This document shows, piece after piece, positions 2,359-26,452 of a stretch of DNA of 64,000 nt (position 1 is its first letter; the number at the start of each line of letters is the position of its first letter). The notes below the pieces were generated by a model. The model was not told the origin of the DNA and did no database searches. It saw nothing but the letters and a program-made list of their open reading frames with translations. The translations under genes and the position numbers were made by a program. This DNA is from an uncultured Peptococcaceae bacterium (GTDB lineage: Bacteria > Bacillota > Peptococcia > Peptococcales > Peptococcaceae), in contig CABUKW010000003.1 in the NCBI GenBank assembly GCA_902492275.1, forward strand, positions 6,756-70,755. The letters are read 5' to 3'.

Positions 2359-2913
2359 ATGGCATTCTATTTAGTTGATTATGAAAACGTGAATACAGAA
2401 GGGCTGCAGGGCGTAGAGCAGTTGACGGCAGCCGATGAAGTGATTATCTTTTACAGCGAGCACGCAGACCGCTTAACCTTCGATTTACACCGCCGCTTAA
2501 ATGAATCGAAAGCACAGATTCACTATTTTAAAGTGGGGGCTTGCAAAAAGAACGCGCTGGATTTTCAGTTGGTGAGCTATCTGGGCTACCTGATTGCGCA
2601 GAATTCGGGGCAATCCTTTTATATTATCAGCCGCGACACGGGCTTTCAGAGCGTGGTGCGTTTCTGGTCAGAGCAGCAGATTACCGTTGTGCAGACTGGC
2701 GAATTGCAGCCTGCGCAGCAGCCGGAGCAAGCGCCGAAGGACCCGCTGCAGCAACAGGTGGAGGCGCTTTTTGCCGACGCCGGCTTGTCTGCCGTTGTGT
2801 TAGACTGCTTGCGGCGCAGCAAAAACAAGCAGGAGCTGCACAATCTACTGGCGGCCAAGCTGCGCAATGACGGCGTCGGCGACATCTACAAGAAAGTGAA
2901 GCATCTTTTATGA
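2359..2913 (+). CDS. PIN-like / NYN-type nuclease-domain protein (hypothetical)
   Basis: 184 aa; N-terminal MAFYLVDYENV...IIFYS...ALDFQL...YIISRDTGF resembles NYN/PIN-like domains; Q/P-rich linker and helical tail. Confidence 0.45.
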   Translation: MAFYLVDYENVNTEGLQGVEQLTAADEVIIFYSEHADRLTFDLHRRLNESKAQIHYFKVGACKKNALDFQLVSYLGYLIAQNSGQSFYIISRDTGFQSVVRFWSEQQITVVQTGELQPAQQPEQAPKDPLQQQVEALFADAGLSAVVLDCLRRSKNKQELHNLLAAKLRNDGVGDIYKKVKHLL

Positions 2914-2924
2914 GCTGATTCATC

Positions 2925-2952
2925 GGCAGTCCCTTTGGGGGCTGCCTTTTTT
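2925..2952 (+). terminator. Intrinsic terminator after the 2359-2913 gene
   Basis: ggcagtccc-tttg-ggggctgcc hairpin followed by tttttt. Confidence 0.7.
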
Positions 2953-3025
2953 ATGCCGCGATAAAAAAATTTTGGCAGCGCAAGCCCTGTCAAGGAAATA
3001 AAATTCATATTTTTACAAATTTTTC

Positions 3026-3054
3026 TTGCTTTTCTTTTTACTGTACTGTATAAT
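3026..3054 (+). promoter_or_regulatory. Sigma-A type promoter ahead of the rep gene
   Basis: TTGCTT (3026-3031), 17-bp spacer, TG-extended TATAAT (3049-3054). Confidence 0.55.
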
Positions 3055-3123
3055 AAAGGAAAAGAAAAAATTTACAGAAAAGGCAGTCTATTTGCAGCCA
3101 TTTTTTCAGCAAAGGAGAACGGC

Positions 3124-3984
3124 ATGGATCAAAACGAAAGAGAATCTTGTATTGGTAGCTCTATTAGGGGGGTGGACAATACAGCGCAAAGTACTCTCAA
3201 GGGGCATTGTATTGCGGGTTTGGACTGGTTTGAGTTTACGCTCTGGGATTTTTCTGTTTCGGCCATCATGGAGCGGCTTCTCAGGCTATCGCCAGAGCAG
3301 TTTGAAAAATCACGGGGAAGTTATCATGGGTATGGCACCAAGTATACGCTGGGCGATGAGCTGATTACCATTTGGGCCGATGGTGGTGTGCAGCAAGGGG
3401 TTCATGTTATCATAACCGGGCGGGGTTGTGCCTATCTGCAAGAAGTGATGCCCTTTTTGGATTTGCTCATGGCGTTGTCCGCTTTGTGTGTGCAGGTGAC
3501 GCGGCTGGATTTGGCTTTGGATGATAAAACCGGAAATTGGTATACTGTGGCCCAGTTGGTTGACCATGCCCGTAGTATGGAAATTATTAGTCAATGGCGT
3601 GGCTGCGATGTCAGTATGGGTTATTCTTTGACTAGTGGCGAGAATGATAAAGCAGTGATTTATATAGGTTCTACCCGTTCTGATATGTTTTTGCGGGTGT
3701 ACGATAAACGGTTGGAACAGAATGCCCGCGGCGTTCACTGGACAGTGTTGCCGGAGCAATGGACCCGCTGGGAGTTTTGTCTGCGCAACGAAAAGGCCCA
3801 GGCCGTGATGCATAAATTACAGCAGGGCGGCTCGCTGAATCAGCTCTTTGCCGATTTGTTGTCGGAGTCTATGCGTATTGTAAAGGCGGACAAGCAGCAG
3901 ACCAATCGCAGCCGCTGGAAGGTGCGGACAAAATGGCTGCGCTTTGTGCCAGCCATCGCCCAAGCCGACGGTCGTTCCGCCTGA
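3124..3984 (+). CDS. Replication initiation factor (Rep_trans-type rolling-circle Rep) domain protein
   Basis: 286 aa; GLDWFEFTLWD..., VTRLDLALDD, IYIGSTRSDMFLRVYDKRLEQ, WTRWEFCLRNEKA match the Rep_trans layout of phage/ICE/plasmid initiators; RBS AAGGAGA. Confidence 0.7.
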   Translation: MDQNERESCIGSSIRGVDNTAQSTLKGHCIAGLDWFEFTLWDFSVSAIMERLLRLSPEQFEKSRGSYHGYGTKYTLGDELITIWADGGVQQGVHVIITGRGCAYLQEVMPFLDLLMALSALCVQVTRLDLALDDKTGNWYTVAQLVDHARSMEIISQWRGCDVSMGYSLTSGENDKAVIYIGSTRSDMFLRVYDKRLEQNARGVHWTVLPEQWTRWEFCLRNEKAQAVMHKLQQGGSLNQLFADLLSESMRIVKADKQQTNRSRWKVRTKWLRFVPAIAQADGRSA

Positions 3985-4011
3985 TCAAACAGAAAGAGAA
4001 AAAATTGCAAA

Positions 4012-4027
4012 TGTTTCACGTGAAACA
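4012..4027. promoter_or_regulatory. parS (ParB-binding site), perfect 16-mer
   Basis: TGTTTCACGTGAAACA with flanks aaaaattgcaaa / ttttt; lies between the rep stop and the yjbR-like gene. Confidence 0.85.
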
Positions 4028-4070
4028 TTTTTAAAATTTCCGATTAAGAAATTTAGAGGAGTGGAGAATT

Positions 4071-4415
4071 ATGCAAACCAGAGCGGAAGCCATTGCCTGC
4101 TGCCTGCAGTTGCCCGATGTGTACGAGGACTATCCCTTTGCCGATAAAAACTGGACTGTAATGCGGCACCGGCAAAATAAAAAAGCCTATGCCTGGATTT
4201 TTGAACGGCAAGGCCATATCTGGATTAATGTCAAATGCGCGCCGGGCTGGCTGGAGTTTTGGCGACAGAAATACGAAGCCGTTATTCCGGCCTATCACTT
4301 AGACAAAGACCATTGGAACTCCATCATTCTCAATGGCACCGTGGACGATTCCGATATCCGCGACATGATTGGCGAAAGCTACCGGCTCACCGCGCCGAAG
4401 GTGAAGAAAAGATAA
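4071..4415 (+). CDS. MmcQ/YjbR-family DNA-binding protein
   Basis: 114 aa; LPDVYEDYPF...WTVMRH...NKKAYAWIFERQG...INVKC...YHLDKDHWNSI is typical of YjbR. Confidence 0.7.
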   Translation: MQTRAEAIACCLQLPDVYEDYPFADKNWTVMRHRQNKKAYAWIFERQGHIWINVKCAPGWLEFWRQKYEAVIPAYHLDKDHWNSIILNGTVDDSDIRDMIGESYRLTAPKVKKR

Positions 4416-4476
4416 CAGGGAAGGGTGTGTTGTCTGCTATACCGTCGGTAAAGATAGCGGAGGCGCGTTCACTAAT

Positions 4477-4546
4477 CTAACATGGAAAAGCAAGATGGTT
4501 TATGCTATAATTGGGATGATAAATCGGAAGTTGACGGGAGGCTTTT
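4477..4546 (+). repeat. Promoter sub-module, copy 0 (right-hand part of the cassette module only)
   Basis: ctaacatgg...ggtttaTGCTATAATtgggatgataaat resembles 5014-5087 and 5770-5843; extended -10 at 4503-4511; RBS GGGAGG. Confidence 0.6.
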
Positions 4547-4834
4547 ATGTCAAAATTAAGTGACTTAATAAATGCAGAAAATGGATTTCTTGTAAAGTTA
4601 CGATATGAGAATATCTTTGATGAAGCGAAATATTCAGATATTAAAAATCAAATTTTAATTGAAATTCCAACATGGAAAAAACAAGGATTTGTTTTGAATT
4701 GTGATGTTAAAGCGTTAATTGGTTTGATTGATCAATTAGCAGGAGGGAGTCGCTTTTTTGATGAAGAAACAGAAATCAGGGTTGAGGACGCTTGTATGGA
4801 AATAGAAGAAATTGTAAGCTGCTTAGAAAGCTAA
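4547..4834 (+). CDS. Small hypothetical protein (cassette gene 1)
   Basis: 95 aa, acidic, no signal peptide; good RBS; no family recognised. Confidence 0.55.
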   Translation: MSKLSDLINAENGFLVKLRYENIFDEAKYSDIKNQILIEIPTWKKQGFVLNCDVKALIGLIDQLAGGSRFFDEETEIRVEDACMEIEEIVSCLES

Positions 4835-4835
4835 C

Positions 4836-5087
4836 TTCTAGTTTATCAGATAACTGCTATTTGGCTATTTTGATTGAAGCATATCAAAAGCTGTCTTTCA
4901 GCGATATAAACTTTCAGCAGTGCAAAAGGAAAATGGGCGCAATAAAAAAATTGCAAATGTTTCACGTGAAACATTTTTTGCTGTTGGCGTTGGACATGGG
5001 AGTATGCAAGAAGCTAACATGAGAATGCATTGTGGTTCATGCTATAATTGGGATGACAAATTGAGATTTTGAAAGGAGACTAATAGA
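4836..5087 (+). repeat. Cassette junction module, copy 1 (~250 bp, parS-centred, carries promoter and RBS)
   Basis: Differs from 5593-5843 at only about eight positions over ~235 nt by eye. Contains parS at 4958 and TGCTATAAT at 5040-5048. Confidence 0.85.
4958..4973. promoter_or_regulatory. parS, perfect 16-mer
   Basis: aaaaaaattgcaaaTGTTTCACGTGAAACAtttttt inside module copy 1. Confidence 0.85.
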
Positions 5088-5579
5088 ATGATAGATTCTA
5101 TATTTGGTCAAATAGAAAAGGACGAATTTTATTTCAATGGAGATTTCATACTTGAATTTGCGGGTACTGCGTATCCCGTAAAATTATTAATAGAATTTGA
5201 TGATGAACGAATTACACAAAAGCAATATGAAGCATTCCAATGTTTTATGAAAGAATGGCCTGTTTTGCAACCTAAGTTGATAAAAGCGTTAATAGACTAT
5301 TACAACCAGGAAGAACGCTTTTCGTGGGGACCGGATGACGAAGAAGAACTTGCCATATGGTGGCCGGAAATTGAAACGAAAGAAGCTCTTTTACGTGCAG
5401 TAACAGTAGAATCTATCGTAATTCCCAGCGAATATCTTATGGAGGCAAAGGGCGGTCACACTATTTACCTTTTATTTTCGAAAGCATGGGGCGGAGAAGA
5501 TTTGGACGATAATGGAATAGGGGTTGCTTTTTTGAATGAGGAGATTGACGAAATCGCTTACAAAGACATCGCATTTTGA
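5088..5579 (+). CDS. Hypothetical protein, immunity-protein-like small acidic domain (cassette gene 2)
   Basis: 163 aa; RBS AAGGAG; W/E-rich (EEELAIWWPEIETKEAL). Overall look resembles small DUF-type immunity proteins; family not confidently recognised. Confidence 0.55.
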   Translation: MIDSIFGQIEKDEFYFNGDFILEFAGTAYPVKLLIEFDDERITQKQYEAFQCFMKEWPVLQPKLIKALIDYYNQEERFSWGPDDEEELAIWWPEIETKEALLRAVTVESIVIPSEYLMEAKGGHTIYLLFSKAWGGEDLDDNGIGVAFLNEEIDEIAYKDIAF

Positions 5580-5592
5580 TGAAATGACAAGA

Positions 5593-5843
5593 TTCCAGTT
5601 TATCAGATAACTGTCATTCGGCTATTTTGATGGAAGCATATCAAAAGCTGTCTTTCAGCGACATAAACTTTCAGCAGTGCAAAAGGAAAATGGGCGCAAT
5701 AAAAAAATTGCAAATGTTTCACGTGAAACATTTTTTGCTGTTGGCGTTGGACATGGGAGTATGCAAGAAGCTAACATGAGAATGCATTGTGGTTCATGCT
5801 ATAATTGGGACGATAAATTGAGATTTTGAAAGGGGGAGAAAAA
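5593..5843 (+). repeat. Cassette junction module, copy 2
   Basis: Near-identical to 4836-5087; parS at 5715; TGCTATAAT at 5797-5805. Confidence 0.85.
5715..5730. promoter_or_regulatory. parS, perfect 16-mer
   Basis: aaaaaaattgcaaaTGTTTCACGTGAAACAtttttt inside module copy 2. Confidence 0.85.
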
Positions 5844-6239
5844 ATGGCAATATCGAATATAAATACAATTATCAATAGCGATATTCATAAAGTCTGGAAT
5901 ATTGTTTTAGCTGTCGATAAATATAATATATGGCGAAGCGATTTAACTAAAACAGAAATCATAAATGACAAGCAATTTATTGAGTACACTAAAGACGGAT
6001 ATGCTACTAAATTTTCTATTACTAGTGTTGAGCCATATAAACGATGGGAATTTGACATGGAAAATAGCAATATGACGGGGCATTGGGTTGGTACTTTTAC
6101 AGCTAAGGGAAGTGAAACACAAATTGATTTTACAGAAAATGTGACACCTAAAAAATGGTTTATGAAACCTTTTGTAAAAATCTATCTGAAGAAGCAGCAA
6201 GAGAAATTTGTTATGGACTTAAAAAAAGCATTGGAATAA
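5844..6239 (+). CDS. SRPBCC-superfamily (START/Bet v1-like) protein (cassette gene 3)
   Basis: MAISNINTIINSDIHKVWNIV...YNIWRSDL...WEFDMENSNMTGHWVGTF pattern; ATG at 5844 after GGGGGAG. Confidence 0.6.
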   Translation: MAISNINTIINSDIHKVWNIVLAVDKYNIWRSDLTKTEIINDKQFIEYTKDGYATKFSITSVEPYKRWEFDMENSNMTGHWVGTFTAKGSETQIDFTENVTPKKWFMKPFVKIYLKKQQEKFVMDLKKALE

Positions 6240-6242
6240 CAA

Positions 6243-6404
6243 TTCCAGTTTGTCAGGCAGTTGCCGATATTAGATAACTGCTATTTCGCTATTTTGATGG
6301 AAGCATATCAAAACCTGTCTGTCAGCGACATAAACTTTCAGCCGCACCAAGGGAAAAAGGCGCAAAAAATTGCAAATGTTTCACGTGAAACATTTGCAAT
6401 TTTT
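6243..6404 (+). repeat. Cassette junction module, copy 3 (left half plus parS only, more diverged)
   Basis: ttccagttt...gataactgctatttcgctattttgatggaagcatatcaaaacctgtctgtcagcgacataaactttcagc aligns with copies 1 and 2. It ends in a 40-bp perfect palindrome (6365-6404). Confidence 0.75.
6377..6392. promoter_or_regulatory. parS, perfect 16-mer
   Basis: Core of the perfect 40-bp palindrome aaaaattgcaaaTGTTTCACGTGAAACAtttgcaattttt; 17 nt from the convergent brnQ stop. Confidence 0.85.
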
Positions 6405-6408
6405 GTTC

Positions 6409-7734
6409 TTAGAATTTCTTTTGTATGGCGTGTACCAGTGCGCCGATGAGGCCGCCCAGGATAGCGGGAACAATCCAGCCCAGGCTGAGATCGTACAGGG
6501 GCACCAGCTGCAGCCATTGGCTGAGGATACCCAGCGACAGGCCGTAGTTGGCGGCCAACGCTTCTAAGCCGTTGGGAATGCTGATGAGCGCGGTGCCGAC
6601 CAAAATGCCGATATAAATGGCTTGACGGCTTTGCAGCCATTTGTCCAAAAAGGAGACGGCCACCAACGCCATCAATATGGGGTAAACCATCAGCAAAATG
6701 GGCAATGTGATGCTGATTAATTGGGTCAGGCCAATATTGCTGATGAAAAAGCTGAACACGCAAACGGCGATAATTACATGATTGTATTCCAGCTTCACAT
6801 AGGTGCGGCTGAAATAATCGCCGAACGAGGTGGTTAAGCCGATGGCGGTTGTCAAACAGGCGAACAGTACCGCTACGCCTAAAATCAGCATCCCCACTGT
6901 GCCAAACATAGAGTTGGCCACCGCCGATAAAAGCTGACCGCCGTTGGAAAATTGGCCCAGCGCGCTGGAGGTAGCGCCTACATAGGCCAAAATGCCGTAG
7001 ACCACCGCCAAGCCGACAGCGGCCAATAAACCGGCCAGCAACGTATATTTTACGATGTTGCCTTCTTTTTGGATACCCATGCCTTCTACGTTCTCAATGA
7101 CAATGAGGGCGAAAACGCCGGCGGCCAAAGCGTCCAGCGCCTGATAGCCTTCGATTAATCCCTTGAAGAAAGGAATGGAGCCATAATCACCTACCGGCGC
7201 GTTTAACGGACTGATGGGATGAACGATTGCGCTTAGTCCGATAATGAAAATGGACAGCAGCAAAATCGGCGTCAAAATTTTTCCCACGATGTAGACAATC
7301 TTTTGCGGATTGGCCGAGAGAAAATAGGTCAGCCCAAAAAAGACAGCCGTAAACAAAATAGAAAACAGCATTGTGTTGGCCCCTTCGCCTAAAAAGGGCA
7401 GCAGCGCCAGTTCAAAGGACACGCTGCCGGTGCGGGGAATGGCGAATAAGGGGCCGATTAATAGATAAATCAACGCGGCAAAAAAGGCGGCAAACCGCGC
7501 GCCTGCTTTGCTCAGCAATTTCAGCAGAGAACGGCCGGCAAACACAACGGCGGCGATGGTGATAAGCGGCAGCCCCACGTCGGTGGCCACGTAGCCAGCC
7601 AGCGCGGCCCATACGTTGGTACCGGCAGCCTGTCCCATAGCCGGCGGGAAAATCATGTTCCCGGCGCCGAAGAACAGCGCAAAGAGCATGAGCGATAATG
7701 ATAGCAGTTGGGAAAAGGACAATTTTTCTTTCAT
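6409..7734 (-). CDS. brnQ: Branched-chain amino acid transport system II carrier (LIVCS family)
   Basis: 441 aa, about 12 TM segments; LMLFALFFGAGNMIFPPAMG N-terminal signature. Confidence 0.85.
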   Translation of the reverse strand: MKEKLSFSQLLSLSLMLFALFFGAGNMIFPPAMGQAAGTNVWAALAGYVATDVGLPLITIAAVVFAGRSLLKLLSKAGARFAAFFAALIYLLIGPLFAIPRTGSVSFELALLPFLGEGANTMLFSILFTAVFFGLTYFLSANPQKIVYIVGKILTPILLLSIFIIGLSAIVHPISPLNAPVGDYGSIPFFKGLIEGYQALDALAAGVFALIVIENVEGMGIQKEGNIVKYTLLAGLLAAVGLAVVYGILAYVGATSSALGQFSNGGQLLSAVANSMFGTVGMLILGVAVLFACLTTAIGLTTSFGDYFSRTYVKLEYNHVIIAVCVFSFFISNIGLTQLISITLPILLMVYPILMALVAVSFLDKWLQSRQAIYIGILVGTALISIPNGLEALAANYGLSLGILSQWLQLVPLYDLSLGWIVPAILGGLIGALVHAIQKKF

Positions 7735-19327: not shown

Positions 19328-19377
19328 TTTGCAAATTTTGCGAGAAAAATCATGCATCCTGATAAGGAGTGAATCGT

Positions 19378-20136
19378 ATGGGAAAAGTGATTGTTGTTGC
19401 CAATCAGAAGGGCGGCGTAGCCAAAACGACAACGTCGGTCAATTTGGCTGCGTGTCTGGCCCATTATAAAAAGAAAGTGTTGCTCATTGATTTAGATCCG
19501 CAGGGCAATGCCAGCAGCGGGCTGGGTATCAATAAAAATGGGTTGGAACATTCGTCTTATGATGTGCTGGTGAATTTTGTACCCATTGATAAAATTACGG
19601 TGGAAGTTAATAAAAAATTATCGGTATTGCCCGCGAAGGTGGAACTGGCTGGCGCGGAGATGGAATTGGTGGCGGCCATTTCACGGGAAATGCGTTTGAA
19701 AAATGCGTTGGACGATGTGAAAGACAACTATGATTACATCATCATTGATACGCCGCCTTCCTTGGGGTTGCTCACGTTGAATGCGCTCACAGCAGCCGAT
19801 ACCTTTTTGGTGCCCATTCAATGTGAATATTATGCGCTGGAAGGATTGAGCCAACTGCTGAGCACCATTAAACTGGTACAGAAAAATCTCAATCCTGGTT
19901 TGCAGATGGAAGGCATTCTGCTCACTATGTACGATAACCGCACCAATCTGTCCAATCAGGTTGTGGCCGATGTGCGGGAAAATTTCAAAGAAAAAGTATT
20001 TAAAACCATAATTCCCCGGAATGTGCGGCTTAGCGAAGCGCCTAGCTTTGGGCAGTCCATTCTGGATTATGACGCAAAATCCAAAGGCGCAGAGACGTAT
20101 CTGGCGCTGGCCAAGGAGGTAATCAAACATGGCTAA
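19378..20136 (+). CDS. parA: ParA/Soj chromosome-partitioning ATPase
   Basis: MGKVIVVANQKGGVAKTTTSVNLAA deviant Walker A, LLIDLDPQGNAS, IIIDTPPSLG; ATG at 19378 after AAGGAG. Confidence 0.95.
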   Translation: MGKVIVVANQKGGVAKTTTSVNLAACLAHYKKKVLLIDLDPQGNASSGLGINKNGLEHSSYDVLVNFVPIDKITVEVNKKLSVLPAKVELAGAEMELVAAISREMRLKNALDDVKDNYDYIIIDTPPSLGLLTLNALTAADTFLVPIQCEYYALEGLSQLLSTIKLVQKNLNPGLQMEGILLTMYDNRTNLSNQVVADVRENFKEKVFKTIIPRNVRLSEAPSFGQSILDYDAKSKGAETYLALAKEVIKHG

Positions 20137-21034
20137 GACAAAAGGCGGCTTAGGCCGTGGACTAGGCGCGTTGTTGCCTGAGTATGAAGAAATTGTAGAA
20201 ACACACAATAGCAGCGACGGTGTGGTAGAGATTGAACTGGAAAAAATATTTCCCAATCCGGATCAGCCGCGCAAAACCTTTGACGAGGATAAGCTGATTG
20301 ATTTGGCCGAGTCTATTCGTGAGCATGGCGTGTTGCAGCCCATTTTGGTTGCGCCCCGCGACGATAAGTTTATGATTATCGCCGGCGAACGCCGCTATCG
20401 GGCGTCAAAGCGGGCAGGCCTGAGCACCATTCCGGCGTTGATTCGGGAAATGGACGATGAAAAGGTGATGGAGCTGGCGTTGATTGAAAACGTGCAGCGG
20501 GATAACCTGACGCCCATTGAAGAAGCGCGGGCCTATGATGTGCTTATGAACCGGTTTGGTTATACCCAGGAACGGTTATCGAAGCGGATGGGGAAAAGCC
20601 GTAGCGCCATTGCCAATATTACGCGGCTGTTGGCGTTGCCGGAGGACGTGCAGCAGATGGTGCAGGAGGGCAAGCTTACCACTGGTCATGTGCGGCCTAT
20701 GCTGAGCATTGACGTTCCTGAATGGCAGAGCGCCTTCGCCCATGAGATTTATCAAAGCAATCTTTCTGTGCGCGACGTAGAAAAAATGGTGAAGAACTCT
20801 TTAGATGCGGGCATGGTGCAGTGGGAAGAAAAAGAAGTTTTATTTCATAATCGGGCCAAATATAAAAAGCTGCCCGATAATCTGCGGGTTTTGCAGGAAC
20901 AATTAGCGGAAAAATTAAGCACCAAGGTCAGCATCAAAAAAAATACCGATGGCAGCGGTCGGTTGATTATTGAGTATTACAGTGAGGATGATTTGAAGCG
21001 GGTATTTGACGCACTGAACGGCAACTTTTATTGA
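20129..21034 (+). CDS. parB: ParB/Spo0J partition protein (CTPase-type)
   Basis: 301 aa; GLGRGLGALL, NPDQPRK, IIAGERRYRASK arginine patch, HTH region; overlaps the parA stop by 8 nt. Confidence 0.95.
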   Translation: MAKTKGGLGRGLGALLPEYEEIVETHNSSDGVVEIELEKIFPNPDQPRKTFDEDKLIDLAESIREHGVLQPILVAPRDDKFMIIAGERRYRASKRAGLSTIPALIREMDDEKVMELALIENVQRDNLTPIEEARAYDVLMNRFGYTQERLSKRMGKSRSAIANITRLLALPEDVQQMVQEGKLTTGHVRPMLSIDVPEWQSAFAHEIYQSNLSVRDVEKMVKNSLDAGMVQWEEKEVLFHNRAKYKKLPDNLRVLQEQLAEKLSTKVSIKKNTDGSGRLIIEYYSEDDLKRVFDALNGNFY

Positions 21035-21061: not shown

Positions 21062-21077
21062 AGTTTCACGTGAAACA
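21062..21077. promoter_or_regulatory. parS, one mismatch, directly downstream of parB
   Basis: aGTTTCACGTGAAACA with flanks tgatttgcaaa / tttacc; 28 nt after the parB stop. Confidence 0.75.
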
Positions 21078-21298
21078 TTTACCGCAAATGCGCATAAAGT
21101 ACTTGCACAAATTGTTTTGTTGCTATAAAATTAAATAAGAAACAGTGTGATGCATATTTTGTCAGCCGCAAAATATGTTTGCGCCATTTGTTAGCCGAAT
21201 TACATTCCCATGAAACGCTAGGAAGTGATTCGGTTCTTTTTATAAGTGCTGCGAGGTTGCTTTTGTTGCGAAAAGAAAAGATAAGCGAGGTGTTTCGC

Positions 21299-21784
21299 GT
21301 GAAAACGAAACGGACAGGCTTGTATAAATTAAGCGTGTTGTTGCTGGTTTGTGTGTTGTTAACGGGGTGGGCCGAATTATATCCTATGCGCACTTTTCCG
21401 CCGGCAATAGAAAAGGTGCAGTGGATGTATGTAAATCAATGGTCAGATTGGGAAACACACCATCATATGCTTGATGCGGCTGATGTGAGAGCGTTTTACG
21501 ATGAACTGCAAAACTTGGATTTGGTGCGCAGAGGAACGTCGTGGGAAGATATGGACGCTGCACATCATGTGGTGTATGAGGCACACAGTTGTTATCAAGT
21601 AGGCAGATCTGATAAAAATTTATGCTGGGCAAATTTTTATCTTGCTGATGATGGGTTTCTCTTGCTCTCAGTCAGTAACCAGTTTGTCAGCAATCAATTT
21701 GTTCTTTATGAAGACGTCAGTGGAAATTATGATGAGTTTTTTTCGTTGGTGCGGCAGTTGGATGAAAAATCTCAGCTAGAATAA
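21299..21784 (+). CDS. Hypothetical exported/anchored protein
   Basis: GTG at 21299 after AGCGAGG gives VKTKRTGLYKLSVLLLVCVLLTGW, a signal-like N-terminus; the track ORF begins at 21179. Confidence 0.5.
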   Translation: MKTKRTGLYKLSVLLLVCVLLTGWAELYPMRTFPPAIEKVQWMYVNQWSDWETHHHMLDAADVRAFYDELQNLDLVRRGTSWEDMDAAHHVVYEAHSCYQVGRSDKNLCWANFYLADDGFLLLSVSNQFVSNQFVLYEDVSGNYDEFFSLVRQLDEKSQLE

Positions 21785-21793
21785 TTTTGCAAA

Positions 21794-23539: not shown

Positions 23540-23755
23540 TTATTCTGCGTCGGTCAAAGAGATGACCTGATAGCCGCCGTCGATGACAACCTGTTTCATG
23601 GCGTCGTCGCTGACGGTGCCGTCGGTGGTAATATAGGCCGCTTTGTCTTCTAAGCTGACGGTGGCGGTAACGCCGTCTAAGCCGTTTAATGCTTTGGTTA
23701 CTGCGTTTTGGCAGTGGGGGCACATCATGCCTTCAATTTTCATCGTTTTTTTCAT
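23540..23755 (-). CDS. CopZ-like HMA domain, possibly also translated on its own (in frame with and nested in the copA ORF)
   Basis: GAAGGAG, 8 nt, then ATG at 23755; MKKTMKIEGMMCPHCQNAVTKAL... (71 aa). Confidence 0.35.
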   Translation of the reverse strand: MKKTMKIEGMMCPHCQNAVTKALNGLDGVTATVSLEDKAAYITTDGTVSDDAMKQVVIDGGYQVISLTDAE

Positions 23756-26452
23756 GGTACATACTCCTTCGTGATTAATATTTGCTGATGTTTCACGTGA
23801 AACATTTGCATCTGATAAATTGGAAGTCGGTTGGTCATCGGTGAGCGCAAGCACCTGATAGTCGGCGTTGATGACAGCCTGCTTCAGTGCGTCATCACTG
23901 ACGGTGCCGTCGGTGATGATATAGGCGGCGTTATCTTCTAAGCTGACGGTGGCAGTCACGCCGTCTAAGCTGTTCAGCGCTTTGGTAACGGCATTTTGAC
24001 AATGGCTGCACATCATACCGCCGATTTGCATGGTTTTATGCACTCCGCTTTTCTTGCTTTCAGTGGCAGATGCTGGGCCGGTTGGTTTGAGAATAGACGA
24101 AGCGCTTTCCAAGCTGGTGATAAGCTGTACTTCATTGGCATCTGCTGGCAGAGCTGTGACTGTAGTTTGTTCCGGTAATACTGGACGGAATTTGCGCAGC
24201 CGCAGCGCGTTGGTGACAACGAAAACGCTGCTGAAGCTCATAGCCGCAGCGCCAAACATGGGGCTTAGCAGCCATCCCGTCCAATGATAAAATACGCCGG
24301 CGGCTAAAGGAATGCCCAGGCAGTTGTAGAAAAAGGCCCAGAACAGATTTTGTTTGATATTGCGAATGACTGATTTGCTGAGTTGAATGGCAGTCACAAC
24401 GTCCAACAGGTCGTTTTTCATCAGCACAATGTCGGCGCTTTCCAACGCCACATCGGTGCCGGCGCCGATAGCTAAACCAACGTCGGCGCGCGCCAGAGCG
24501 GGCGCGTCGTTGACGCCGTCGCCCACCATGGCGACCACCTTGCCTTGCGCTTGCAGCGCTGCAATCTGTTGTTCTTTGTCCTGCGGCAGCACTTCGGCGA
24601 TAACGTCATCCAACTGTAATTGCTGCTGAATAGCTGTTGCGGTGCGAGCATTGTCGCCGGTGAGCATGATAACCTGCACGCCCATCGCTTTCAGTTGCTG
24701 AATGGCTTGTTGACTGGTCGGCTTCACCACATCGGCTGCGCCGATGATGCCGATTACCTGCTGCTCGTCGGAGAAAATCAACGGCGTTTTTCCGGCGGTG
24801 GCCAAATCATCCAGCACGCTGGCCCATTGCTGCAGTGGAATATTTTTTTCGTTCATCAGGCGGCGATTGCCTGCGTAATAATAGGTGCCGTTAATTTTAG
24901 CCTGAATGCCTTTTCCCGGCAAGGACTGGAATTGTTCCGATGTTGCAGCGCTGATTTGTTGCTCAGCGGCGTAGGTCAGCACTGCTTCGGCCAGCGGATG
25001 CTCGCTGCCTTCTTCCAGCGCGGCGGCGATGCTGATAAATTCCTCTTGCGTGGAAAAAATAGTCTGTACGTCTGTCACAACAGGCTTGCCTTGGGTGATG
25101 GTGCCGGTTTTGTCCAGCACTACAGTTTGAATATTATGGGCCGTTTCCAATGCTTGCCCCGATTTAATCAAAATGCCATGCTCAGCGCCTTTGCCGGTGC
25201 CCACCATAATGGCTACCGGTGTGGCCAATCCCAGCGCGCAGGGGCAAGAGATGACCAGCACGCAAATCGCGCAGGATAAAGCGAATTCAAAGGTGGCGCC
25301 GCTTAACAGCCAGACAATGGCAGTGAGCAGCGCAATGCTGATTACAACGGGCACGAAAATACCAGCGATGCGGTCAGCCATTTTGGCGATGGGCGCTTTG
25401 GTGGCCGATGCATCTTCCACCAGACGGATGATTTGGGCAAAGGTGGTGTCGTTACCAACCTTAGAAGCCGTAAAGCGAATGAAGCCGCCTTTGTTAATTG
25501 TAGCTGCAATAACTTCATCGCCCGGTTCTTTTTCTACCGGGATACTTTCGCCGGTGATGGCCGATTGATCCACGCTGGTATTGCCTTCGGCGATGATGCC
25601 GTCCACCGGAATACGTTGCCCCGGTTTGACCAATACCATATCGCCCACCACAACCTGTTCAACAGGCACTTCCATCTGCTGTCCATTGCGCTCTATGGTG
25701 GCAGTTTTGGGCGCCAAGTCCATCAGCCGCGTCAGAGCTTCGCTGGTTTTGCCTTTAGAGCGGGTTTCCAGATATTTGCCGACGGTGATTAACGCCAAAA
25801 TCATCACAGCCGATTCAAAATATAAATCGTGATGATAGCGAGCCACCAGCTCCATATCGCCGGCGCCTAAGCCGTAACTCATGCGGTAAATGGCGAAGAT
25901 GCCGTAAATCATAGCAGCGCCGGAGCCGATGGCAATCAGGCTGTCCATGTTGGGCGCGCCGTGGGATAAGGTTTGAAAGCCCTTGATATAAAACTTGCGG
26001 TTCACATAAGCGATGGGCAGCGCCAACAAAAATTGCGTAAACGCAAAGCTGACGGCATTGGCGTGGCCGCTTAAAAAGCTGGGCAGCGGCAGACCAACCA
26101 TGTGGCCCATAGAAACATACATCAGCGGGATTAAAAAGACAAAGCTGACAATCAGTCGGTGCTTCATTTCTTTTAGCTGCGTGTCCATAGGATTTTCCCG
26201 CTGTACGGGAGCGGCGGCTGGCGCTGCGGCGCTATTGGCTTCCTGCTTGACGCTGGCGCCGTAGCCTGCCTGTGTTACTGCTGAAATAATGTCGTTGGTT
26301 GTGAGCTTACTGTCGTCAAACTCTACCTGCATGCTGTTGGTCAGCAAATTTACGGTAACGTCGTTCATGCCCTCCAGCTTGCGCACGCATTTTTCCACCC
26401 GTGATGAGCAAGCGGAGCAGGTCATTCCCGTTACATCGAATTTTTCTTTCAA
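23540..26452 (-). CDS. copA: Copper-translocating P1B-type ATPase with one N-terminal and two C-terminal HMA domains
   Basis: 970 aa; GMTCSACSSRVE, CPC motif (SCPCALGLATP), DKTGTIT, MLTGDN, GDGVNDAPAL; C-terminal GMMCSHC and GMMCPHC domains. Confidence 0.9.
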   Translation of the reverse strand: MKEKFDVTGMTCSACSSRVEKCVRKLEGMNDVTVNLLTNSMQVEFDDSKLTTNDIISAVTQAGYGASVKQEANSAAAPAAAPVQRENPMDTQLKEMKHRLIVSFVFLIPLMYVSMGHMVGLPLPSFLSGHANAVSFAFTQFLLALPIAYVNRKFYIKGFQTLSHGAPNMDSLIAIGSGAAMIYGIFAIYRMSYGLGAGDMELVARYHHDLYFESAVMILALITVGKYLETRSKGKTSEALTRLMDLAPKTATIERNGQQMEVPVEQVVVGDMVLVKPGQRIPVDGIIAEGNTSVDQSAITGESIPVEKEPGDEVIAATINKGGFIRFTASKVGNDTTFAQIIRLVEDASATKAPIAKMADRIAGIFVPVVISIALLTAIVWLLSGATFEFALSCAICVLVISCPCALGLATPVAIMVGTGKGAEHGILIKSGQALETAHNIQTVVLDKTGTITQGKPVVTDVQTIFSTQEEFISIAAALEEGSEHPLAEAVLTYAAEQQISAATSEQFQSLPGKGIQAKINGTYYYAGNRRLMNEKNIPLQQWASVLDDLATAGKTPLIFSDEQQVIGIIGAADVVKPTSQQAIQQLKAMGVQVIMLTGDNARTATAIQQQLQLDDVIAEVLPQDKEQQIAALQAQGKVVAMVGDGVNDAPALARADVGLAIGAGTDVALESADIVLMKNDLLDVVTAIQLSKSVIRNIKQNLFWAFFYNCLGIPLAAGVFYHWTGWLLSPMFGAAAMSFSSVFVVTNALRLRKFRPVLPEQTTVTALPADANEVQLITSLESASSILKPTGPASATESKKSGVHKTMQIGGMMCSHCQNAVTKALNSLDGVTATVSLEDNAAYIITDGTVSDDALKQAVINADYQVLALTDDQPTSNLSDANVSRETSANINHEGVCTMKKTMKIEGMMCPHCQNAVTKALNGLDGVTATVSLEDKAAYITTDGTVSDDAMKQVVIDGGYQVISLTDAE
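23789..23804. promoter_or_regulatory. parS, perfect 16-mer, inside the copA reading frame
   Basis: tttgctgaTGTTTCACGTGAAACAtttgcatc; read as ...DANVSRETSAN... in the linker between the two C-terminal HMA domains. Confidence 0.85.

Follow-up and report, generated by a model that had tools for sequence, protein, structure and literature searches.

Strain-variable small genes joined by parS-centred junctions in a putative cargo slot near the partition operon of an uncultured Peptococcaceae bacterium

Small accessory genes set in tandem around a repeated junction are known from several bacterial systems. Integrons and the clusters of attC sites lacking integron integrases (CALIN) carry unrelated, promoter-proximal small open reading frames (ORFs) with a palindrome-centred junction, and their content varies from strain to strain. 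In the orphan toxin-tip/immunity arrays of contact-dependent inhibition (CDI) and Rhs systems, a repeated conserved stretch lets cassettes swap by homologous recombination. Chromosomal ParABS centromeres also consist of repeated sites, and dense clusters of parS have been described in Corynebacterium, Streptomyces and Myxococcus. Finally, a described class of integrative mobilizable elements (IMEs) uses Rep_Trans/MobT relaxases, carries variable cargo arrays and is often decayed (PMC5704250). Here we analyse a 64-kb stretch of DNA from a member of the Peptococcaceae (contig CABUKW010000003.1; the whole stretch is called the window, and all coordinates are positions in it). It contains three AT-rich ORFs on the + strand, designated A, B and C, which are separated by near-identical modules built around a perfect parS site.

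The locus shares with integrons and CALIN the tandem arrangement of unrelated, promoter-proximal small ORFs, the palindrome-centred repeated junction and the strain-variable content. In integrons, however, the attC junction is cassette-specific and the cassettes are mostly promoterless and read from a common Pc promoter, whereas the junctions described here show 97% identity, have a perfect parS palindrome at their centre and provide every unit with a predicted TGCTATAAT box and ribosome-binding site (RBS). An earlier reading of the window, made from the sequence only, had likened the locus to an integron cassette array. This likeness holds for layout and strain variability but not for mechanism or family membership: there is no IntI, there are no attC cores and no extrahelical-base architecture, and the variants can be explained by homologous recombination. 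With toxin-tip/immunity arrays the locus has in common the tandem small accessory genes, a repeated junction that can serve as portable homology and the strain-to-strain shuffling, but it contains no toxin gene and no coding repeat, and PADLOC and PHROGs gave no matches for the cassette proteins. As in MobT/Rep_trans IMEs and Tn916-family cargo regions, a Rep_trans gene stands beside small AT-rich accessory genes. Compared to such IMEs and to integrative and conjugative elements (ICEs), the locus is without integrase, excisionase, coupling protein and recognisable att or oriT, its Rep is shorter, the gene yjbR lies between Rep and cargo, and a host parS takes the position that a terminator has in the junction. 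Multi-parS centromeres provide the last comparison: the canonical 16-mer, the central parAB and the many sites within tens of kilobases are the same, while at this locus the sites are nearly all intergenic, they carry a clade-specific, terminator-like extended palindrome of 30-40 nucleotides (nt) with A/T-run flanks, and the duplicated junctions that separate foreign genes contain three of them. The most apt description of the locus is that of a cargo slot driven by recombination, with a host centromere site in its junctions, within an unusually dense array of terminator-like parS sites. As such it would be a variant of cargo hotspots or decayed IMEs and of multi-parS centromeres, and not a new category. 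We consider it fairly probable that this is a strain-variable cargo slot between yjbR and brnQ, whose units are reshuffled by homologous recombination at parS-centred repeats. The features of the locus are as follows (L and R denote the left and right arms of a module).

3124-3984, + strand: Rep_trans (MobT-like) gene, 286 amino acids (aa); Pfam Rep_trans 5.7e-31 plus Rol_Rep_N.
3999-4039, no strand: parS-1 (core 4012-4027), 27 nt past the Rep_trans stop codon; motif and repeat analysis.
4071-4415, + strand: yjbR (MmcQ/YjbR family), an ancestral chromosomal gene and not a cassette; Pfam YjbR 6.3e-27.
4474-4546, + strand: right arm R' ahead of A, 82% identical to the other right arms and with a promoter-like match; it contains TGCTATAAT at 4503-4511, the leader GATAAATCGGAAGTTGA at 4518-4534 and the RBS GGGAGG at 4536-4541.
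4547-4834, + strand: cassette A, 95 aa, no family, GC content 30%; no match in Pfam, NCBIfam, PADLOC or PHROGs.
4835-5087, + strand: module 2, with L at 4835-4946, parS at 4958-4973 followed by T6, and R with TGCTATAAT at 5040-5048 and an RBS.
5088-5579, + strand: cassette B, 163 aa, DUF6985, GC content 38%; Pfam 1.2e-16.
5580-5843, + strand: module 3, with L at 5593-5703, parS at 5715-5730, and R with TGCTATAAT at 5797-5805 and an RBS.
5844-6239, + strand: cassette C, 131 aa, SRPBCC/Polyketide_cyc2, GC content 31%; Pfam 2.2e-9.
6240-6408, no strand: terminal left arm L' and parS-4 (core 6377-6392), between the convergent genes C and brnQ.
6409-7734, - strand: brnQ, the conserved right flank of the slot; Pfam Branch_AA_trans 3e-132 and synteny.
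19369-21034, + strand: parA (19369-20136) and parB (20129-21034), amid the cluster of 16 parS sites; domain search.

The two full modules (4836-5076 and 5593-5833) were aligned by the repeat finder over 241 nt with 97% identity; their central 129 nt, parS included, are identical, and the mismatches sit beside the ORFs. Each module consists of a left arm L that begins at, or shortly past, the stop codon, a perfect parS, and a right arm R with TGCTATAAT, followed by a short leader and the RBS. The same program found a third, partial left arm after C (6268-6360, 87% identity to L) and right arms in three copies (4474-4524, 5011-5061 and 5768-5818; 82% identity to the first). From left to right, the window reads parS, yjbR, R'-A, L-parS-R, B, L-parS-R, C and L'-parS. 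The perfect 16-mer TGTTTCACGTGAAACA is found at 4958, 5715 and 6377, and a further exact site at 4012. These coordinates and identities agree with the sequence-only reading, which had described three unrelated small ORFs each followed by the same three-part module, a last copy that keeps left arm and parS, and a partial right arm ahead of the first ORF. It had also taken the module to be probably non-coding, and the junction does look non-coding. Its statement that the array abuts the Rep_trans gene has to be corrected: the ancestral yjbR stands between the two, and a fourth parS, which had not been listed, separates Rep_trans from yjbR.

By Pfam and NCBIfam, A, B and C are mutually unrelated. 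The profile searches that had been proposed for the three small proteins assigned B to DUF6985 and C to SRPBCC/Polyketide_cyc2, and placed A in no family. PADLOC and PHROGs, searched with all cassette proteins, matched only Rep, and an Rfam scan of 2900-6600 at E-values up to 1 returned nothing relevant. Because A, B and C have a GC content of 30-38%, whereas Rep_trans, yjbR, PIN7 and brnQ have 50-52% (flanks about 51%), the three genes are probably foreign and horizontally acquired. An independent human-gut metagenome contig of 33.6 kb (L001/L004) carries the array as well, which is therefore not an assembly artefact of the window.

Protein look-ups and locus searches among relatives revealed three architectures at this one locus, with PIN7-Rep_trans as the common left flank and brnQ as the common right flank. 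Apart from the window type, there is a common B-only type (Rep/parS-R/B/L-parS/brnQ; L054 and at least nine other metagenome contigs, among them L056-L063 and L069), without yjbR, A and C, and a third type (Rep/parS/yjbR/R-X/Y/Z/L-parS; L006 and L072), with parS at its two ends only. In the third type, X belongs to no family, Y is a small membrane protein and Z is an LprI-domain lipoprotein. In two more distant relatives (L009 and L013), PIN7 lies directly beside yjbR, followed by genes for an extracytoplasmic function (ECF) sigma factor and an anti-sigma factor, and there is neither Rep_trans nor an arm. The yjbR gene is deleted in the L054-type strains, and removing the segments between direct repeats from the window arrangement gives exactly the B-only form. 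The suggestion that the array is variable is thus upheld, its gene content not being identical in all relatives. Two observations concern the third type: L006 and L072 are 100% identical over yjbR-X-Y-Z and 87-98% identical around it, and in L072 Z is truncated by a deletion between two AACGGGAG repeats (L072 4890-4930 against L006 13040-13250). Because of this identity block and this truncation, the locus appears to recombine. The Z deletion is of the microhomology kind and ends just ahead of the boundary motif described below. The left side of PIN7-Rep_trans is variable as well, since L054 (1-4029) has phage- or ICE-like genes (DUF2800/PDDEXK_1, Hydrolase_2, DUF6273, DUF3873 and HTH_38) upstream of PIN7 in place of the flavin reductase region. 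The PIN7-domain gene itself (2359-2913) is conserved directly upstream of Rep_trans, with a ratio of nonsynonymous to synonymous substitutions (dN/dS) of 0.03-0.09 in most comparisons.

The arms were found nowhere outside this locus. There are no further copies of L or R in the window. The exact left-arm pattern had 0 matches in the genome contig collection, while a degenerate pattern covering all known variants matched a single place in 185,579 species-representative genomes, the orthologous locus of the related metagenome-assembled genome L006, and nothing in viral contigs. In the JGI metagenomes, the right-arm pattern matched one contig, of the L054 type and again at the same locus. The search for further module copies that the sequence-only reading had called for thus yielded variable content at the same locus and no copies elsewhere, and the module does not appear to be a portable or mobile element. 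When 2914-6408 was compared by BLAST to plasmids and phages, gene C alone was matched, and an integrated plasmid or phage was rejected for this reason. Homologues of B outside the clade, mostly from Lachnospiraceae, reach at most 64% identity over the full length (74% for a truncated homologue of 137 aa). The flanks of two such outside relatives (L070 and L071) contain no parS, arms or boundary motif, so the arm flanks do not seem to be intrinsic to the B family.

Alignments of the three types suggest how the module arose. L adjoins the terminal parS before brnQ in all of them, and R follows yjbR in L006. L would then be the ancestral 3' flank of the slot and R its ancestral promoter, so that an L-parS-R joint could arise only if a unit's end became fused to the beginning of a second unit. 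At the joint where AAACATTTTTT, that is parS and its TTTTTT run, meets GCTGTTGG, the two internal window modules agree letter for letter with the spacer between Rep and B of L054; in L006, the sequence ahead of GCTGTTGG is yjbR-proximal instead. Since the joint is common to L054 and the window modules, it was presumably made by the yjbR deletion in an L054-like genome, and since the window keeps yjbR, its internal units were probably imported from such a genome. From parS to parS (4947-5733), the window is 98.6% identical to L054, compared to 92.0% in the left flank and 94.2% in the right flank, and B differs from its L054 counterpart at 2 positions in 492 nt (binomial P ~3e-11). This indicates that the B unit was recently exchanged between lineages.

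The mechanism we propose would operate at the margin of the dense parS cluster of the host, downstream of the conserved short Rep_trans gene. Each unit would be an independent expression module, made up of the R promoter with leader and RBS, one acquired AT-rich gene, L, and the parS palindrome with its T-run. The 250-bp module would be the end-to-start joint (L-parS-R) that results when units are placed in tandem. Units would be stacked, lost and swapped through homologous recombination at the parS-centred repeats, either by unequal crossing-over or by Campbell-type integration and excision of R-gene-L-parS circles at another L-parS, with the homology supplied by the 40-nt parS palindrome plus the arms of about 100 nt. 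Incoming DNA from related strains would feed the slot, and parS, an ordinary chromosomal ParB site, would travel along with the junction.

The nature of the parS sites was assessed by scoring the window against the Bacillus-type 16-bp consensus TGTTNCACGTGAAACA with up to 1 mismatch. This gave 14 exact sites and 2 with one mismatch between 4012 and 32183 (28 kb), where 0.05 would be expected by chance per window. The 16 sites surround the parA-parB operon (19369-21034), whose ParB (20129-21034) carries ParB_N, HTH_ParB and ParB_C domains; parA and parB presumably encode the reader of all parS sites. In Peptococcaceae relatives (loci L073-L076 and L009-L012), the +/-10 kb around parB contain 10-12 parS, while the same ParB query fetched 76 other loci with a median of 2 and a maximum of 6 sites; the dense cluster is typical of the clade. 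The extended palindrome TTGCAAA-parS-TTTGCAA is strong in the window and in the sister genome L073; it is weaker in relatives further removed, and elsewhere it is absent. All but two of the 16 sites lie outside long ORFs (14/16; binomial P ~3e-8), many of them 9-100 nt past stop codons and some 8-41 nt ahead of start codons. Because the module parS is one of 16 such sites clustered around parAB, it appears to be the host's standard intergenic chromosomal site, and neither a plasmid-type centromere nor a cassette-specific recombination site.

Elsewhere in the cluster, a reading frame runs without a stop codon through the parS at 23789-23804 (window 23540-24042, - strand; SDANVSRETSANINHEGVCTM). 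This site separates two HMA-domain coding repeats, 80% identical to each other, at the 3' end of an ORF of 970 codons for a P-type ATPase; the second, copZ-like repeat is equipped with an RBS and ATG of its own, and the arrangement is kept in L073 (12960-13560). Several indels between the window and L073 are found directly beside parS (21251-21787, corresponding to L073 11126-11181; 15514-17413; 22829-23494; 28748-29184), and an ORF of about 160 codons that ends at 21784, between the parS sites at 21062 and 21794, is present in the window and missing from L073. The idea that every parS interval is a cassette slot was rejected, since these window/L073 indels do not have parS as their boundary on both sides.

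The expression signals of the junction were examined in the same region. We took as an extended -10 a TGnTATAAT element (sigma-70) suitably spaced from RBS and start codon. The TGCTATAAT boxes, which end at 4511, 5048 and 5805, are three of the four best promoter-like matches in 2900-6600. An extended -10 is thus found in all three right arms; it takes the form TGATATAAT in L006 and L072, and the -35 boxes are poor. The sequence-only reading had described the junction as a parS site with a promoter, and this description stands, the parS being exact and the extended -10 credible as a predicted promoter. In other gut Firmicutes, the homologues of A natively carry a matching leader and RBS. At the end of the slot, parS-4 is a perfect palindrome of 40 nt (6365-6404) between runs of A and T. 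Its predicted folding energies are -23.3 kcal/mol on one strand and -20.6 kcal/mol on the other (z ~-6); it has U5/U6 runs and is separated from the brnQ stop codon by 16 nt. The full parS palindromes have predicted folds of -20 to -27 kcal/mol and A/U-run flanks, and such palindromes probably act as bidirectional terminators as well. The parS of the internal modules keeps half of the palindrome extension, with a predicted hairpin of only -8.9 kcal/mol ahead of T6. A terminator scan called no parS copy, each having fewer than 3 G-C pairs.

We hold with moderate confidence that the Rep_trans gene and the slot are a remnant or a domesticated derivative of a MobT/Rep_trans-type mobilizable element. 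The Rep_trans protein scores 81 bits against NCBIfam MobT, far under the 600-bit cutoff, and is thus not an equivalog of it. It aligns with the full length of the crystallised chain of Rep in PDB entry 4cij, the ...rfYek... stretch included, and is about 90 aa shorter at the C-terminus than its distant homologues in the homologue alignment. The ...RvYdK... stretch carries the catalytic tyrosine in this family, and the presumed catalytic residue of the present protein, Tyr193 (LRVYDK), is retained. The context of a full-length distant homologue (P0128), solitary among IS110 and TnpV genes, was uninformative. Rep_trans is present in every array-bearing lineage and missing from L009 and L013. Its dN/dS of 0.17-0.33 across four lineages (0.03-0.10 in most PIN7 and brnQ comparisons) indicates that it evolves under purifying selection. 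Between L006 (10001-10864) and L072 (1881-2741), Rep_trans forms a local divergence peak, with 87-92% nt identity within a region of 97-100%, and its centre is mosaic, the L072 allele resembling the L054 allele.

The cargo also points to mobilizable elements. Gene C, together with about 45 nt of leader and 13 nt past the stop codon (5825-6252), is 84% identical at the nt level to a gene of the Enterococcus faecium linear plasmid pELF_JHP35. In that plasmid, a cargo run of HTH, MGMT-like, dfrF, SRPBCC and TfoX genes lies beside genes for Rep_trans, an excisionase and a Tn916-type integrase. Its intergenic terminator-promoter modules are duplicated within the run, as are the modules of the window; the gene run is on the same strand as Rep in the window and divergent from Rep on pELF. 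The stretch in question (L157 1745-4860) places dfrF within the small-gene run of a Rep_trans-Xis-Int element. The pELF modules are related to the slot downstream of mobT/orf19 in Tn916-like elements of Clostridioides difficile and Vescimonas (L160, L161). With the C. difficile Tn916-like cargo slot the window shares the 3' flank of B, where 24 nt past the stop codon match a segment of that slot (z ~10, shuffle test). More distant SRPBCC relatives, on a C. estertheticum plasmid and a faecal 'phage' contig, showed no motif.

All six cassette ORFs (A, B, C, X, Y and Z, from two species) are followed, within 0-50 nt of the stop codon, by ACTTCCRGTTTATCAG, which corresponds to the first 16 nt of L. 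An inverted form, GATAAATCGGAAGT, is found in the leaders of A and Y, and degenerate versions ahead of B and C. Homologues of A in other gut Firmicutes (73-92% aa identity) head small-gene operons. Those at 92% share the leader, and their 3' flank, TAACTTCCCATTTATTGG, is related; the homology to the window ends exactly there, and the home operon of A looks stable and native. Cargo genes on pELF, on a small gut plasmid and in the C. difficile element carry related motifs at their 3' ends; among fetched loci totalling about 2 Mb, the stricter pattern ACAAN(0-2)TTCCRGTTT was found only in array loci and pELF. The boundary motif could be an inherited donor flank, a feature acting at the RNA level, which is possible because the leader and post-stop motifs are complementary, or a recombination site on which enzymes of the Rep_trans type act. 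The 16-mer ACTTCCAATTTATCAG (23812-23827, - strand), 7 nt from the parS at 23789, has one mismatch to the motif; it was discarded, being inside coding sequence and matching 11/16 in L073, and is a probable coincidence.

Several points weigh against a recombination-driven slot descended from a mobilizable element. The recombination is read from its end products, and not from intermediates or events, and homologous recombination leaves the first entry of each foreign gene between the arms unexplained. Homology to outside relatives ends within about 15-45 nt of each ORF, and the occurrence of the same 16-mer past six different ORFs would also fit a site-specific boundary. A conserved Rep_trans under purifying selection has no role in the model. 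As for descent, the host gene yjbR interrupts the supposed element. In the Pfam tables, supplemented by a check of the window ORFs, no integrase, resolvase or transposase was found within about 10 kb on either side, in line with the earlier remark that no integrase is nearby, and there was no excisionase; comparison with L009 and L013 disclosed no att-like repeats at the boundaries of the Rep insertion. To the eye, the promoter arms resemble promoters of pELF, pRGI00402 and Tn916-like elements, but most shuffle tests of this likeness were not significant; only the C leader and the 3' flank of B withstood them. Lastly, the internal parS hairpins are weak for terminators at their predicted -8.9 kcal/mol, and the scan called none.

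Could the duplication have been kept for partition or regulation? Extra parS sites might strengthen ParB loading, or ParB bound about 70 bp upstream of the -10 might control or insulate the cassette genes. The clade does keep an unusually dense parS array, almost entirely intergenic and with a palindrome extension of its own, and the modules are identical over the central 129 nt around parS while their edges differ, which suggests homogenisation or constraint. Identical centres are, however, equally expected from a recent duplication, and the L054-type and L006-type strains manage with two parS at the locus. We regard this explanation as unlikely in its own right; it covers retention and not origin, and is compatible with the cargo slot that we favour.

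The boundary motif raises the question of a dedicated site-specific system, in which units of leader motif, ORF and ACTTCCRGTTTATCAG are cut and joined by Rep_trans at the inverted motif or at parS. The constancy of the 16-mer past all six ORFs in two species, with inverted copies upstream of A and Y, fits such a system, as do the related motifs that end cargo genes in Rep_trans/MobT elements of Enterococcus and C. difficile and in the small gut plasmid, and the fact that the homology of A and C to outside relatives stops at boundary motifs. Rep_trans itself would be the candidate enzyme: it accompanies the arms in every lineage and is not found in relatives without them, it is intact, it keeps the tyrosine aligned to 4cij and the above dN/dS of 0.17-0.33, and no integrase is nearby. 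Against this, the co-occurrence of Rep_trans and arms amounts to a single phylogenetic event, the motif past A is the native 3' flank in a home operon where nothing points to mobility, and the corresponding motifs of pELF double as leaders of the next gene. The origin specificity of pT181-family Rep proteins resides in the C-terminal part, and Rep_trans is without the C-terminal 90 aa or so of its longer distant homologues; no nick-site hairpin was identified. Moreover, the direct-repeat deletions, the microhomology deletion and the exchange of a parS-bounded unit require no special enzyme. We therefore give this explanation little credence. In a wider form, it would be an undescribed cassette system of gut Firmicutes, with ORFs bracketed by a leader GAYAAATYGGAAGT and by ACTTCCRGTTTATCAG, and captured and stacked downstream of Rep_trans/MobT genes by rolling-circle-type nick-and-join; the junctions of the present clade would have recruited parS, coupling cassette traffic to ParB loading. 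This is a speculative idea, to which we attach a similarly low probability.

An element resembling a miniature inverted-repeat transposable element (MITE), with terminal inverted repeats CTTCTAGTTTATC and GATGACAAATTGAG, a parS and an outward promoter, could in principle have been inserted repeatedly, as the module ends do form imperfect inverted repeats and two modules are near-identical. Such a dispersed module is rejected because the arms are confined to one locus in all collections scanned and found nowhere else in the window; with no target-site duplications seen either, the proposal is largely refuted. It also fails to explain the unrelated, foreign and strain-variable genes, or the half modules (R alone, L alone) that bound the array, and we consider it very improbable. 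Least credible of all is an integrase-less integron array (CALIN) or an integrated multimer of a rolling-circle plasmid: tandem small ORFs, a palindrome-centred junction and a neighbouring Rep_trans would agree with it, but there is no RYYYAAC inverse core in any module and only a single, unpartnered GTTRRRY match (GTTGGAC) per full module, the junctions are near-identical with a promoter for each unit and no IntI, PLSDB plasmids match gene C only, and a single Rep copy lies between chromosomal flanks conserved in relatives.

If the recombination-driven cargo slot is the correct description, chromosome-partition sites can be copied together with the junctions of accessory genes. The parS junctions could serve as portable homology, by which foreign genes are stacked, lost and exchanged between diverged strains beside the centromere. 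With its unusually dense and almost entirely intergenic array of extended-palindrome parS sites, which may double as terminators, the clade offers a natural system for studying the origin and spread of ParB loading sites and their interplay with transcription. Should the boundary motif prove to be a recombination site, it would represent a new mechanism of cassette capture in Gram-positive mobile elements; should it not, the locus would be a clean example of a recombination-driven cargo slot. The coupling of parS to the junctions, together with the parS architecture of the clade, may be of interest to specialists of chromosome segregation and of mobile elements alike.

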